NCBI RefSeq assembly: GCF_041248615.1
Contig: NZ_CP158426.1
Direction: 5' to 3' (one strand)
Length of the DNA: 64,000 nucleotides
From: Escherichia coli
GTDB lineage: Bacteria > Pseudomonadota > Gammaproteobacteria > Enterobacterales > Enterobacteriaceae
Shown here: piece after piece, positions 12,032-36,266 of the stretch
Layout of the letters: each line of letters opens with the position of its first letter
Position numbering within the stretch: position 1 is the stretch's first letter
The notes under the pieces: generated by a model
The model's input: the letters and a program-made list of their open reading frames with translations, nothing else
What the model was told of the DNA's origin: nothing
The model's database searches: none
Translations under genes and position numbers: made by a program

Positions 12032-12997
12032 TCATTCTCCCCGCTGCTTATCATGCCGATAATTCACCCAGGCGTTGATAATAAATGTCATCACCAGAAT
12101 GCCAAACACCACGCCCAGCGAGACGGCGATTGGAATATGGTAGAAGTCGACAATCAGCATCTTGATACCGATAAACACCAGAATCACCGCCAGGCCATAT
12201 TTGAGCATCGAGAAACGTTCTGCTACGCCCGCCAGCAGGAAATACATCGCACGCAGGCCGAGGATCGCAAAGAGGTTTGAGGTCAGCACAATGAACGGGT
12301 CAGTGGTCACGGCGAAGATAGCCGGAATGCTATCCACGGCGAAAATCACGTCGCTCAATTCCACCAGAATCAGCACCAGCATCAGCGGCGTGGCATACAG
12401 CAAGCCATTTTTACGCACAAAGAAATGCTCGTTGTCGATGGTGTCGGTCATACGCAAATGACCGCGTAGCCAGCGCACCAGCGGCTTGTCGCCAATGCCT
12501 GATTCATCTTCATGGGCCAGCGCCATCTTCACGCCGGTAAACAGCAGGAAGGCACCGAAGATATACAGGATCCAGTCGAACTGCGAAATCAGCCAACTGC
12601 CAGTGAAGATCATGATGGTACGCAGAACAATCGCCCCGAGTACGCCATACACCAGCACGCGCCGTTGTAACGCCGCCGGAACAGAGAAATAGCTGAACAA
12701 CATCAGCCAGACAAAGACGTTATCGACCGCCAGCGATTTCTCAATCAGATAACCCGTGAGAAAGGCCAGTGCCTGTGGATCGGCAACGGCGCGACCTTCG
12801 GTTTGCACCAGATACCACCAGAAAGCGGCGTTAAACAGTAACGACAGCGTCACCCAGACCAGCGACCAGGCCGCAGCCTGTTTCATGGTCATGCCATGTG
12901 CCCCACGACGCCCCTGCAACAACAGGTCGATAGCCAGCATAATGGCGACAACAACAGCGAATCCGCCCCATAGCAACGGCGTGCCGACAGTATTCAT
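12032..12997 (-). CDS. alx: TerC-family membrane protein Alx
   Basis: 321 aa, [29 protein letters not shown]. Confidence 0.9.
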
Positions 12998-19099: not shown

Positions 19100-19190
<91 letters not shown>

Positions 19191-32889: not shown

Positions 32890-32985
32890 TGCCGGATCCG
32901 GTGTTTGATACACGATGCCTGATGCGATGCTGGCGCATCTTATCAGGCCTACGGGGGGGTAGGGTACGCCGCATCCGGCAATCGG
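32890..32985. repeat. REP elements
   Basis: TGCCGGATCCGG..., ATGCTGGCGCATCTTATCAGGCCTAC and GGGTACGCCGCATCCGGCA between convergent aer and yqjI. Confidence 0.5.
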
Positions 32986-32988
32986 TGA

Positions 32989-33612
32989 TTAATCCAGTTG
33001 CGTAATATCAAAAGCGGCGCGGTCGATCACCGCAATGATCTTTTTTATTTGTGCATCAGTGATATCGCTCTGGTTGACGCGTAAATCCAGCACCGCTTTA
33101 AAATTATCCAGTGCCCGCTTCATTTGCGGGTTCTGGCGCAGCGCAGCGCCAACGCAACGCGCTTTGATGCGTTCTTCAATCATCTCTACCTGTTCGCGGT
33201 TTTCTTCCAGCCACTGCGCGCCTTGTTCGGTCAACGCAATCTGCTTCTTACCACCTTCCTCTTCGCGGATGGTAATCAGCGACTGCTCCTGCAGAAAATC
33301 CAGCGTTGGGTAGATGACGCCCGGGCTTGGGGTGTAATTCCCCTGGGTTAGATTCTCAATCGCTTTAATCAATTCGTAACCGTGGCTGTCATCGCGCGAG
33401 AGAATATCCAGAATCACCAGACGTAATTCACCGTGACCAAAGAAACGTTGCCGACGACCGCCGCCGCGACCGTGGCGACCACCGCAGCATTGACCGTGTT
33501 CATGCTGGTGACCGTGTCCGCAGTGCTCATGTTCTGACTTCTCACCTTTGCAGCAGCCTTCATGGCGTGGCTGGCCTTCATGTTTACAACACCCTTCGTG
33601 ATGATGGCTCAT
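32989..33612 (-). CDS. yqjI: PadR-family metal-responsive repressor
   Basis: 207 aa with His/Cys-rich N-terminus (HHHEGCCKHEGQPRHEGCCKGE) and PadR-type winged helix. Confidence 0.88.
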   Translation of the reverse strand: MSHHHEGCCKHEGQPRHEGCCKGEKSEHEHCGHGHQHEHGQCCGGRHGRGGGRRQRFFGHGELRLVILDILSRDDSHGYELIKAIENLTQGNYTPSPGVIYPTLDFLQEQSLITIREEEGGKKQIALTEQGAQWLEENREQVEMIEERIKARCVGAALRQNPQMKRALDNFKAVLDLRVNQSDITDAQIKKIIAVIDRAAFDITQLD

Positions 33613-33619
33613 ATCAGCC

Positions 33620-33885
33620 TCCTTTTGCTTAATTAGATATATCTAATTTATATCTGATATGAGCGCTCTTGCAAGTATAAAAATGATTTTTAAACGTGAA
33701 TGCACCTCACATCCAGGCCGGATAATACGTTCACGCCGCATCCGCCAGCCTTTCTACGACGTTGAATGTCTTCTCATACCTCAGATATATCAGTTCTACA
33801 AATCGCTTGCATTTATCATGATTAACAATCATTATCATTTACGAAATTTATTTAGATATATCTGATTACTATCACGAAGGCGATA
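33620..33885. promoter_or_regulatory. yqjI / yqjH divergent promoter region with Fur box and repeated palindrome TTAGATATATCT
   Basis: GATTAACAATCATTATCATT (about 33820-33839) matches the Fur box consensus GATAATGATAATCATTATC; the palindrome TTAGATATATCT occurs at about 33633-33644 and 33852-33863, next to each start codon; a REP-like unit lies at about 33706-33750. Confidence 0.5.
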
Positions 33886-33888
33886 ACA

Positions 33889-34653
33889 ATGAATAACTCC
33901 CCCCGCTACCCGCAGCGCGTTCGCAATGATCTGCGCTTCCGTGAACTGACTGTGCTACGCGTTGAGCGTATTAGCGCCGGTTTTCAGCGCATTGTCCTTG
34001 GCGGCGAGGCGCTGGACGGTTTTACATCGCGCGGCTTTGACGATCACAGCAAACTCTTCTTTCCTCAATCTGATGCTCACTTTGTGCCGCCAACGGTAAC
34101 GGAAGAGGGTATCGTCTGGCCGGAAGGACCACGCCCACCGTCGCGTGACTATACGCCGCTGTATGACGAACTACGCCATGAACTGGCGATTGATTTCTTT
34201 ATTCACGAAGGTGGCGTCGCCAGCAGCTGGGCAATGCAGGCGCAACCGGGCGATAAACTTACGGTGGCAGGTCCGCGCGGTTCGCTGGTGGTGCCAGAGG
34301 ATTACGCGTATCAGCTGTATGTCTGCGATGAATCCGGAATGCCCGCACTGCGCCGCCGCCTGGAAACGTTGAGCAAACTTGCCGTTAAACCGCAAGTTAG
34401 CGCACTGGTTAGCGTGCGGGATCACGCCTGCCAGGATTATCTCGCGCACCTTGATGGTTTTAATATCGAATGGCTGGCGCATGATGAGCAGGCGGTAGAT
34501 GCGCGTCTGGCGCAGATGCAAATCCCTGCCGATGATTACTTCATCTGGATAACCGGCGAAGGCAAAGTCGTTAAGAATTTAAGCCGCCGCTTTGAAGCGG
34601 AACAGTATGATCCACAGCGGGTACGTGCAGCGGCTTACTGGCACGCAAAGTAA
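33889..34653 (+). CDS. yqjH: NADPH-dependent ferric-siderophore reductase (siderophore-interacting protein family)
   Basis: 254 aa, MNNSPRYPQRVRNDLRFRELTVLRVERISAGFQRIVLGG. Confidence 0.88.
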   Translation: MNNSPRYPQRVRNDLRFRELTVLRVERISAGFQRIVLGGEALDGFTSRGFDDHSKLFFPQSDAHFVPPTVTEEGIVWPEGPRPPSRDYTPLYDELRHELAIDFFIHEGGVASSWAMQAQPGDKLTVAGPRGSLVVPEDYAYQLYVCDESGMPALRRRLETLSKLAVKPQVSALVSVRDHACQDYLAHLDGFNIEWLAHDEQAVDARLAQMQIPADDYFIWITGEGKVVKNLSRRFEAEQYDPQRVRAAAYWHAK

Positions 34654-34659
34654 CTGATA

Positions 34660-34702
34660 TATAAAAAGAAAAAGGCTGATGATTTCTCGTCAGCCTTTGC
34701 TA
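34660..34702 (-). terminator. rho-independent terminator downstream of the tRNA fragment
   Basis: Minus-strand hairpin AAAGGCTGACGAGAAATCATCAGCCTTT followed by a T-run, directly 3' of the tRNA 3' end. Confidence 0.55.
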
Positions 34703-34706
34703 TATC

Positions 34707-34753
34707 TGGTGGCCCCTGCTGGACTTGAACCAGCGACCAAGCGATTATGAGTC
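34707..34753 (-). tRNA. ileX: 3'-terminal 47-nt fragment of a CAU-anticodon tRNA (ileX-type tRNA-Ile2); not a complete gene; candidate island att site
   Basis: Revcomp reads GACTCATAATCGCTTGGTCGCTGGTTCAAGTCCAGCAGGGGCCACCA (anticodon loop with CAU, T-arm, acceptor 3' strand, CCA); upstream sequence cannot pair as a 5' acceptor strand, so the gene is truncated at the anticodon stem. Confidence 0.7.
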
Positions 34754-34879
34754 ATGAGGCAAGTTCGTTCTATATTGTTTTTGTTTGTTCGTGATTGCTT
34801 TATTAGTTGTTTGTAATCAATAAATTATGTGATTTTCCCTGTCTCCGCTTGGTTCCGTTTTTTCTTCATTGTACGATCG

Positions 34880-34903
34880 TTACCTGACCCATTACCTGAC
34901 CCA
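34880..34903 (+). repeat. perfect tandem 12-bp direct repeat TTACCTGACCCA x2 (candidate integrase arm-type sites)
   Basis: Two adjacent identical copies about 50 bp upstream of the integrase start, inside the att-proximal region. Confidence 0.4.
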
Positions 34904-34949
34904 AAATCACGAGTTATTCTGATTGTTACTGGTTTAGAAAAGAGGTTCT

Positions 34950-36266
34950 ATGGCCGTCAATCTTACTGAAACAGCCATCCGAGCATTGAAAGCAAAAAAG
35001 ACATCGTTCTATGTCTGGAGCAACAGCTCTCAACGTGGCACTGGACGACTTGGTGTCAAAGTTCAGCCTTCTGGCAGCAAGATTTTCTATTTCCGCTATT
35101 ACGTGGAAAAAGGGAAAAAAGAAAGATTCATTCAATTGGGTATATGGCCTGAGATGAAACTGGCCACAGCGAATGAACTGGCAAAAAAGTATGGTGCCTG
35201 GCTCATTGAAGGAAAGGCTCCCCAGGCAGAACTGGAACGACAACAGTTTGCAGAACAGCAGCGGATACAACTCCATCAATCACAGGGCTCATTTGAAGCA
35301 TTGATTCATGGTTATGTTAACAAAATGAAAATTGATAATAAGAGGACATGGCAGGATGTTCTGAAACGCCTTGAAAATGAATGCTATACAGTGATCCCCC
35401 GTGAAACTAAAGCTAAAGATGTGACTTCCGGACAGATTAAACATATCCTGGCCGGGATCATTCAGCGCGGTGCTGTGGTTCACTCTAACCGGATCCGTTC
35501 TTACCTGATGGCTGCATTTAACTATGGACTGAAAGCAGATAACGATCCGATGAACACAAGTGTAGGGATTACTTTTGGGCTGGAGGCAAATCCGGTGTCA
35601 GTGATACCGAAACAGTCATCTGCTGAAAAAGTCGGTGATACCTGGCTGACACTTGAAGAGTTGCGTTTTCTAATGGAACATTTTGCTGAAGCAACCAACG
35701 TTGGATTATTGATGCAACATTTGATCCGATTCTGTATCTATACCGGAGGGCAACGTCCTTTCGAAATGATCGCCAGTCAGTGGTGTGATGTTGATTTTCA
35801 ACAAAAAACGCTGCTGGTGACTGCTGATGTCTCTAAAAATAAACGAGAGCATTTGATACCGTTGACTGAATCAGCATTACAGGAATTATCCTGTGTGCAG
35901 GAGTTAACAAAAGAAAAATCCAGCCCTTACATTTTTCCACTTTCGACTAATGGTAAGCGTCCGGTTCGTACGGACAGTCTGGCTCGCGCTATCATGTATT
36001 TCCGGGCTTTTAATCCTGACTTTAAAATTTTTACAGCACGTGACTTACGTCGGACCTGTAAAACGTTAATGGGAGAAGCTGGGATCAGTAAGGAAATCCG
36101 CGATCGTATTCAAAATCATGCGTTGAACGATGTCAGTTCAAAACATTATGATCGATACGATTATTTGCCAGAAAAACGCAGAGCACTTGAGATCTGGGAG
36201 GACCGGGTTAATAACTATCAACAGCAAACAGGCAATAATGTTGTCAATCTGTTTGGCAGAAGGTGA
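34950..36266 (+). CDS. tyrosine site-specific integrase (P4-type)
   Basis: 438 aa; N-terminal arm-binding-like region (KVQPSGSKIFYFRYYVEKGKK); C-terminal catalytic-region motifs (HDLRRT..., ...HYDRYDY); good ribosome-binding site AAAAGAGG. Confidence 0.88.
   Translation: MAVNLTETAIRALKAKKTSFYVWSNSSQRGTGRLGVKVQPSGSKIFYFRYYVEKGKKERFIQLGIWPEMKLATANELAKKYGAWLIEGKAPQAELERQQFAEQQRIQLHQSQGSFEALIHGYVNKMKIDNKRTWQDVLKRLENECYTVIPRETKAKDVTSGQIKHILAGIIQRGAVVHSNRIRSYLMAAFNYGLKADNDPMNTSVGITFGLEANPVSVIPKQSSAEKVGDTWLTLEELRFLMEHFAEATNVGLLMQHLIRFCIYTGGQRPFEMIASQWCDVDFQQKTLLVTADVSKNKREHLIPLTESALQELSCVQELTKEKSSPYIFPLSTNGKRPVRTDSLARAIMYFRAFNPDFKIFTARDLRRTCKTLMGEAGISKEIRDRIQNHALNDVSSKHYDRYDYLPEKRRALEIWEDRVNNYQQQTGNNVVNLFGRR

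Follow-up and report, generated by a model that had tools for sequence, protein, structure and literature searches.

The window analyzed here, that is, the whole 64,000-bp stretch of Escherichia coli DNA, carries the divergently oriented genes yqjI (also named nfeR) and yqjH (also named nfeF), which were located from the list of open reading frames and are separated by an intergenic region of 276 bp (33613-33888). The assignment of these two genes in the initial annotation was borne out by the protein domains, by RefSeq and by the 98-99.5% identity of the products to their K-12 counterparts. YqjI contains a Pfam PadR domain (E = 2.5e-15), displays a Cys/His-rich N-terminal extension that is visible in the translation and differs from the K-12 protein by a single substitution, S185T (99.5% identity), so that the gene of a cognate PadR-type regulator lies intact and adjacent to the operator pair described below. 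YqjH contains the Pfam FAD_binding_9 and SIP domains and shows five substitutions relative to K-12 (98% identity). RefSeq names the same two genes nfeR and nfeF at a locus that is 100% identical over 381 bp, and also in K-12. According to the alignment, the ribosome-binding sites of both genes are identical to those of K-12. A 68-aa ORF at 33659-33865 was rejected as a gene, considering that it covers the promoters, the REP element and the Fur box, and that its sequence is that of the hypervariable center of the region. The features of the locus are listed in Table 1.

Table 1. Genes and observed or predicted regulatory features of the yqjI-yqjH locus (positions in the window).
Feature	Position	Strand	Description and basis
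yqjI/nfeR	32989..33612	-	PadR-type repressor, 207 aa; ORF, Pfam and RefSeq annotation
yqjI ribosome-binding site AAGGAGG	33619..33625	-	Read from the sequence; position kept in Escherichia alleles
yqjI-proximal operator (site II core), predicted	33631..33648	.	Perfect 18-bp palindrome AATTAGATATATCTAATT enclosing TTAGATATATCT
yqjI -10 TATAAA, predicted	33647..33652	-	Between two TTAGATATA repeats; PMC3946193
Auxiliary half-site TATATCTGA (TCAGATATA in yqjI sense), predicted	33649..33657	.	Ungapped alignment of 33 regions
yqjI -35 TTGCAA, predicted	33669..33674	-	PMC3946193; TTGC at fixed distance in orthologues
Degenerate REP unit	33717..33746	.	27/30 positions as in the K-12 copy
Third degenerate copy TCAGATATATCA, candidate auxiliary YqjI site	33781..33792	.	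Core AGATATATC at 33783-33791
yqjH -35 TTGCAT, most likely	33807..33812	+	CTTG at fixed offset from AATCATTATCAT in 33/33 regions
Fur-binding cluster, predicted	33813..33842	.	7-1-7 core TAACAATcATTATCA at 33823-33837 and overlapping weaker 7-1-7 TTATCATGATTAACA at 33813-33827
yqjH -10 CATTAT, most likely, inside Fur core	33830..33835	+	Inferred from the conserved -35 and 17-bp spacing
yqjH-proximal operator (site I) TTAGATATATCTGA, predicted	33852..33865	.	Exact motif and matrix score
yqjH/nfeF	33889..34653	+	Siderophore-interacting NADPH-dependent ferric reductase, 254 aa; ORF and Pfam

The repetition of a palindrome at both divergent promoters, which had been pointed out in the initial annotation, was confirmed by the exact occurrence of the 12-mer TTAGATATATCT at 33633-33644 and 33852-33863 (three strand-matches at two loci, compared to 0.00 expected from 100 dinucleotide shuffles). 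The features noted there all fall inside the stated interval, 33620-33885. The inverted repeat abuts the predicted -10 hexamers at both promoters, and the alignment shows that both palindromes and their flanks are identical to those of K-12, where the binding of YqjI was characterized. Besides, the yqjI-side palindrome is abutted by a half-site, TATATCTGA, that was absent from the initial annotation. The operator of yqjI is thereby organized as a tandem TTAGATATA repeat with a start-to-start spacing of 11 bp, wrapped around the yqjI -10 element and with the second copy completed into a palindrome, and the pattern [T/C]TAGATATA-NN-TTAGATATATC was found in every genus in an ungapped alignment of 33 orthologous regions. 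Based on this conservation, the YqjI operators are predicted at 33631-33657 and 33852-33865, 219 bp apart in the window. In Wang 2014, the footprint at the yqjI promoter is reportedly extended compared with that at the yqjH promoter, and such an extension would fit the tandem TTAGATATA arrangement.

An 11-nt perfect inverted repeat, GCTCATATCAG / CTGATATGAGC (33607-33617 and 33654-33664), was also observed bracketing the yqjI operator, with one arm covering the yqjI start codon and with CATATCAG, which resembles the operator half-site, lying within both arms; the arm at 33650-33660 constitutes an everted palindrome, ATATCTGATAT, as well. No conservation of this inverted repeat was detected in the orthologous regions compared outside Escherichia.

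A scan with the YqjI protein, considering one genome per species, retrieved 32 loci from Escherichia, Citrobacter, Enterobacter, Lelliottia, Superficieibacter, and Raoultella. The yqjH gene was divergently adjacent in 31 of these loci, and the adjacency was unreadable in the remaining one (L008), where the contig ends only 117 bp upstream of yqjI. The orthologous intergenic regions vary between approximately 130 and 287 bp in length and resist alignment otherwise, yet the 28 non-Escherichia loci with both genes all contain exactly two GATATATC cores, one per gene end. When a symmetric weight matrix derived exclusively from orthologous sites outside Escherichia was run over the 64,000 positions of the window, the yqjI-side palindrome ranked first (27.1 bits) and the yqjH-side palindrome ranked second (24.3 bits). 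The two main palindromes are thus placed far beyond chance by a matrix derived from foreign sites, and the third copy is only suggestive. Within the genus, no variation was seen in either palindrome, in the Fur block or in the yqjH -35 element across 10/10 Escherichia alleles, for which the mean column identity was 90%. The occurrence of the palindrome beside both start codons in 33/33 regions of six genera is what would be predicted for a repressor acting on its own gene and on the divergent one, and it agrees with the autoregulation and the repression of yqjH by YqjI that had been cited as known in the initial annotation. In the same matrix scan, the fourth rank corresponded to AACTGATATATAAAAA (34652-34667; 10.8 bits), which overlaps the yqjH stop codon and is probably a chance match, though it adjoins a regulated gene.

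The palindromes could alternatively be AT-rich sequence that belongs to the promoters or arose by chance, or they could be bound by a different regulator, with no role as YqjI operators, considering that the motif abuts or overlaps -10-like hexamers and that -10 elements are resembled by TATAT-rich strings. These alternatives are difficult to reconcile with the exact duplication of TTAGATATATCT at an expectation of 0.00 and with a GATATATC core that has been kept beside both genes in six genera, in surroundings that diverge freely. The palindromic symmetry suits the dimeric winged-helix protein that is encoded next door, and NfeR-dependent repression has been reported in E. coli and Klebsiella (PMC7981267). 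Altogether, we regard the explanations that dispense with YqjI as extremely improbable, and the palindromes are treated in the following as predicted YqjI operators.

The predicted yqjI promoter consists of TTGCAA and TATAAA separated by 16 bp (PMC3946193), and the layout of -35 element, 16-bp spacer, -10 element and palindrome was conserved without gaps in 33/33 regions. The expected start of yqjI transcription falls near the center of the palindrome, and bound YqjI would occupy its own promoter from -10 to +10. At the opposite side, the AATCATTATCAT block is invariant in 33/33 regions and is preceded at a fixed offset by CTTG(CA), which points to TTGCAT and CATTAT, separated by 17 bp, as the likely conserved yqjH promoter. 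A different prediction, TTAACA and TTTTAT with an 18-bp spacer, has been published (PMC3946193); its TTTTAT corresponds in the window to ATTTAT (33846-33851), in a stretch that varies between genera. Transcription would be expected to begin near 33842 from CATTAT and near 33858 from ATTTAT. With either promoter, the Fur cluster would cover core elements and the yqjH-side palindrome (33852-33865) would be positioned at the transcription start or within approximately 15 bp downstream of it. A generic scan for sigma-70 promoters and terminators between 33500 and 34000 returned no prediction, which is no evidence against the promoters since their hexamers (TTGCAA/TATAAA and TTGCAT/CATTAT) are non-canonical and fall below the rules of the scan.

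The predicted yqjH promoter is overlapped by the string GATTAACAATCATTATCATT (33820-33839), described in the initial annotation as a near-consensus Fur box. Its presence as a strong Fur site was supported, and the wording "near-consensus" proved too generous, since the best registers match the 19-bp consensus GATAATGATAATCATTATC at 13-14 of 19 positions, tying at the top of the window with three unrelated sites that reach 14/19; no match to this consensus was found when up to three mismatches were allowed. The agreement is closer with the 7-1-7 motif TGATAATnATTATCA, to which the core TAACAATcATTATCA conforms at 12 of 14 positions (two matches of this quality in 64 kb, compared to 0.24 expected) and the overlapping TTATCATGATTAACA at 11 of 14; additionally, six overlapping registers reach at least 11/19 of the Fur consensus. 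The other 7-1-7 match of the window (12076-12090) is located inside an ORF and was rejected as a likely chance occurrence. A model for the binding of Fur, based on information theory and trained on 24 proven sites of which the weakest scored 10.1 bits, detected a cluster of eight walkers over 106 bp at K-12 yqjH, with the strongest site located 59 bp upstream of the ATG, at coordinate 3214572, and scoring 19.9 bits (Chen et al. 2007, PMC2189734, Table 3). This coordinate corresponds to 3216550 of NC_000913.3, where the C at the center of the 7-1-7 core is found, and to position 33830 of the window, and the sequences are identical. The 19.9 bits are the published score of this identical K-12 sequence. 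The yqjH gene is listed as Fur-regulated in that study, citing its reference 13 (PMC2189734), and has been assigned to the Fur regulon elsewhere (PMC9501238).

The conservation of the AATCATTATCAT block might reflect only its role as -10 element and spacer of the yqjH promoter, with no participation of Fur, considering that CATTAT, with a 17-bp spacing to the conserved TTGCA, could plausibly serve as a -10 element and that the 19-bp Fur consensus is matched at just 13-14 positions. The agreement with the 7-1-7 motif at 12/14 positions, at a frequency above that expected in the window, and the several overlapping registers of at least 11/19, as seen in known Fur clusters, argue against this interpretation. 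Moreover, the score of 19.9 bits exceeds those of fhuA, exbB, and fepA-fes in the table that lists yqjH as Fur-regulated (PMC2189734), and the conservation runs past the hexamer to ATTAGCAATCATTATCATTT. A purely promoter-related origin of this block is therefore considered very improbable, and a Fur-binding cluster superimposed on the promoter is the interpretation maintained here.

Outside these elements, the intergenic region is variable. The window allele of 276 bp differs from the 287-bp allele of K-12, which occupies 3216492-3216778 of NC_000913.3, by an 11-bp indel next to the REP unit, and the differences between both alleles are concentrated in the center, around this unit. Matches to the yqjH-proximal 96 bp and to the yqjI-proximal 88 bp were found in 5,407 and 4,293 of 5,426 complete E. 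coli genomes, respectively, and the central 92 bp of the window were matched in only 57 of them (megablast). A center of the K-12 type was present at a coverage of at least 80% in 3,849 of the 5,426 genomes, and the lengths of the matches define two classes that are 11 bp apart (276 and 287 bp). The center found in the window (33690-33792) resembles that of E. albertii and of a cryptic Escherichia clade. The ten aligned Escherichia alleles and the matches to the genomes show an unusual degree of polymorphism in the center of this region in E. coli, with all regulatory elements fixed.

The REP unit in the center is a GC-rich imperfect palindrome of a multi-copy family, and the K-12 center used as a query matched a median of 36 places per genome; a second REP is located at 19158-19187 of the window. 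No REP was found outside Escherichia in the orthologous intergenic regions compared, and the predicted hairpin of the unit does not exceed shuffled sequence in stability (z = -0.42). The insertion sequence IS1397 belongs to an IS family that targets REP units. In strain IAI39, IS1397 has inserted inside the orthologous REP (positions 899-2621 of locus L035), which places the operators approximately 1.7 kb apart with three intact AGATATATC cores and constitutes a natural test of whether the YqjI operators must communicate. A scan of 32900-35000 against Rfam assigned no family (E <= 1) to the intergenic region and gave only two chance matches and a sub-threshold match to naRNA4, a REP-derived nucleoid-associated RNA. 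Located between aer and the yqjI 3' end, the naRNA4 match (32916-32948; 33 bits compared to a gathering score of 59.5) probably represents another REP unit.

Allowing two mismatches to TTAGATATATCT revealed a third copy, TCAGATATATCA, that was absent from the initial annotation. This copy scored 11.3 bits with the foreign-site matrix, ranking third in the 64 kb, and its AGATATATC core has been preserved in 8 of 10 Escherichia alleles, among them two 287-bp alleles, E. albertii and the cryptic clade. The core is degenerate in K-12 (AGACATATC), and strain SCPM carries AGATGTTTC; outside Escherichia, only a TATC and A-tract remnant or a half-site is found at the corresponding place. The distance between the two main operators varies among genera (96-97, 166, 172-175, 183-185, 217-219, and 230 bp) with no common phase, and a universal helical phasing of both operators was rejected on this basis. 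The yqjH-side operator follows the Fur block at a distance of 14-16 bp in 33/33 regions. Compressed control regions were observed in Enterobacter and Lelliottia (L015-L027), where the whole region is reduced to approximately 144 bp, with operators 96-97 bp apart, two -35 elements almost back to back and an additional AGATATAT half-site in the yqjI promoter spacer.

These observations raise the question of whether the operators act independently or as a three-operator looping system, in which the third core and the half-site would bring in extra dimers of YqjI and full repression would depend on contact between the sites, with K-12 (AGACATATC) carrying a weakened version and the window allele a fuller one. 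Looping is favored by the third rank assigned by an independent matrix, by the maintenance of the core in most Escherichia alleles, including E. albertii and the cryptic clade, by a TATATC or TATC located 8-15 bp upstream of the -35 element in Citrobacter, Raoultella, and Superficieibacter, and by the universal tandem TTAGATATA repeat at 11-bp spacing. However, 11.3 bits barely exceed the best background score (10.8 bits), the remnant outside Escherichia could be an UP-element-like tract, the cores of K-12 and SCPM are degraded, and the operators are 96-230 bp apart across genera with no shared helical phase. We consider such a looping system possible and rather unlikely. A related and more specific proposal would be a multi-operator device in which the palindrome and half-site of yqjI and the palindrome of yqjH are joined by a third core, AGATATATC, located upstream of the yqjH -35 element, degenerate in K-12 and intact in the window and in most wild alleles, and in which the 11-bp indel (276/287 bp, approximately one helical turn) would keep the looping phase. 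This device is regarded as doubtful; if it were true, the published K-12 work would describe a weakened circuit.

Two palindromic operators and a Fur cluster remain the basis of the mechanism proposed here. YqjI, as a winged-helix repressor of the PadR type that carries a metal-binding tail rich in Cys and His, would bind to the TTAGATATATCT palindromes, of which one, lengthened by the tandem half-site, would wrap the -10 and start region of yqjI, and the other would coincide with the yqjH transcription start or follow it closely. Once bound, YqjI would block RNA polymerase at both promoters, presumably by steric occlusion, and the association of nickel with YqjI would lower its affinity for DNA, leading to the derepression of both genes. 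Independently, Fe2+-Fur would bind the AT-rich cluster at 33813-33842, over the yqjH spacer and the likely -10 element CATTAT, and with these core elements covered yqjH would be expressed only at low iron or high nickel. It has been reported that NfeR represses nfeF and that nickel relieves this repression, and nfeF was up 85-fold in a Klebsiella delta-nfeR mutant (PMC7981267). The repression by NfeR, its relief by nickel, the regulation by Fur and the Fur score were obtained from the literature; the present analysis established the sequences, their identity to K-12, their conservation alongside the gene pair in six genera, their specificity in the window and the intactness of the regulator genes. 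We infer the exact promoter hexamers and start sites, the steric occlusion and any cooperation or looping between operators over 219 bp; the title of Wang 2014 points to cooperation between the operators, and a fixed loop geometry is unsupported, given the lack of universal helical phasing.

The control region is located in the vicinity of a genomic island. The island junction falls inside the tRNA-Ile gene ileX, at approximately 34753/34754 and about 100 bp past the yqjH stop codon; only the 3' 46 nt of ileX (approximately 34707-34753) remain on the yqjH side, followed by island DNA that starts with a P4-type tyrosine integrase gene (34950-36266; Arm-DNA-bind_3 and Phage_integrase domains). 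The control region had been described as lying right next to this junction. The island is indeed near and leaves the control region untouched, and the distance between them amounts to approximately 865 bp. ARAGORN detected no intact tRNA in the whole 64-kb window, and no second copy of the 32-nt tRNA end was found in the window, indicating that an intact ileX, if any, would be located beyond the window and that the island would be larger than 29 kb.

Taken together, these results make it very likely that these 276 bp represent the native control region shared by the divergent nfeR and nfeF, with the YqjI palindromes and the Fur site intact. The core regulatory architecture was indeed found to be intact, as had been stated in the initial annotation, since the operators, the Fur site and the promoter hexamers are base-for-base those of K-12. 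The region is an already characterized E. coli system in its normal state, that is, known biology, and its significance extends little beyond annotation: nickel- and iron-responsive control of a ferric-siderophore reductase is intact in a strain that carries an island at the neighboring ileX. The only mildly new aspects are the refinement of the operator architecture, a possible third site whose K-12 counterpart is degenerate, and the rarity of the central allele. Besides, the comparative data provide a cleaner definition of the YqjI operator, consisting of the GATATATC core and, at the autoregulated promoter, of a tandem TTAGATATA at 11 bp.

The closest known system is the yqjH-yqjI region of K-12, regulated by YqjI/NfeR and Fur (Wang, Wu & Outten 2011; Wang et al. 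2014), which shares with the window the same genes in a divergent layout and identical palindromes, half-site, Fur cluster and predicted hexamers. It differs in the central ~90 bp, in the spacing of the operators (230 bp compared to 219 bp in the window) and in the third core (AGACATATC instead of AGATATATC). Operators of the PadR family are inverted repeats bound by a winged-helix dimer and are often autoregulatory. As in other members of this family, a palindrome lies over the promoter of the regulator, which is divergent from its target; in contrast to them, YqjI adds a Cys/His-rich N-terminal metal-binding extension, and a tandem half-site at a distance of one helical turn lengthens the operator of its own gene. 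The REP unit belongs to the same multi-copy family of GC-rich palindromes as the REP/BIME elements of E. coli, but is single and degenerate in this region. Finally, classical enterobacterial Fur boxes likewise consist of an AT-rich cluster of overlapping sites over promoter core elements; relative to them, the yqjH site combines a perfect half-site (ATTATCA) with a degenerate left half-site (TAACAAT), and its 19.9 bits are comparable to the scores of mntH, fhuA, and exbB (PMC2189734).
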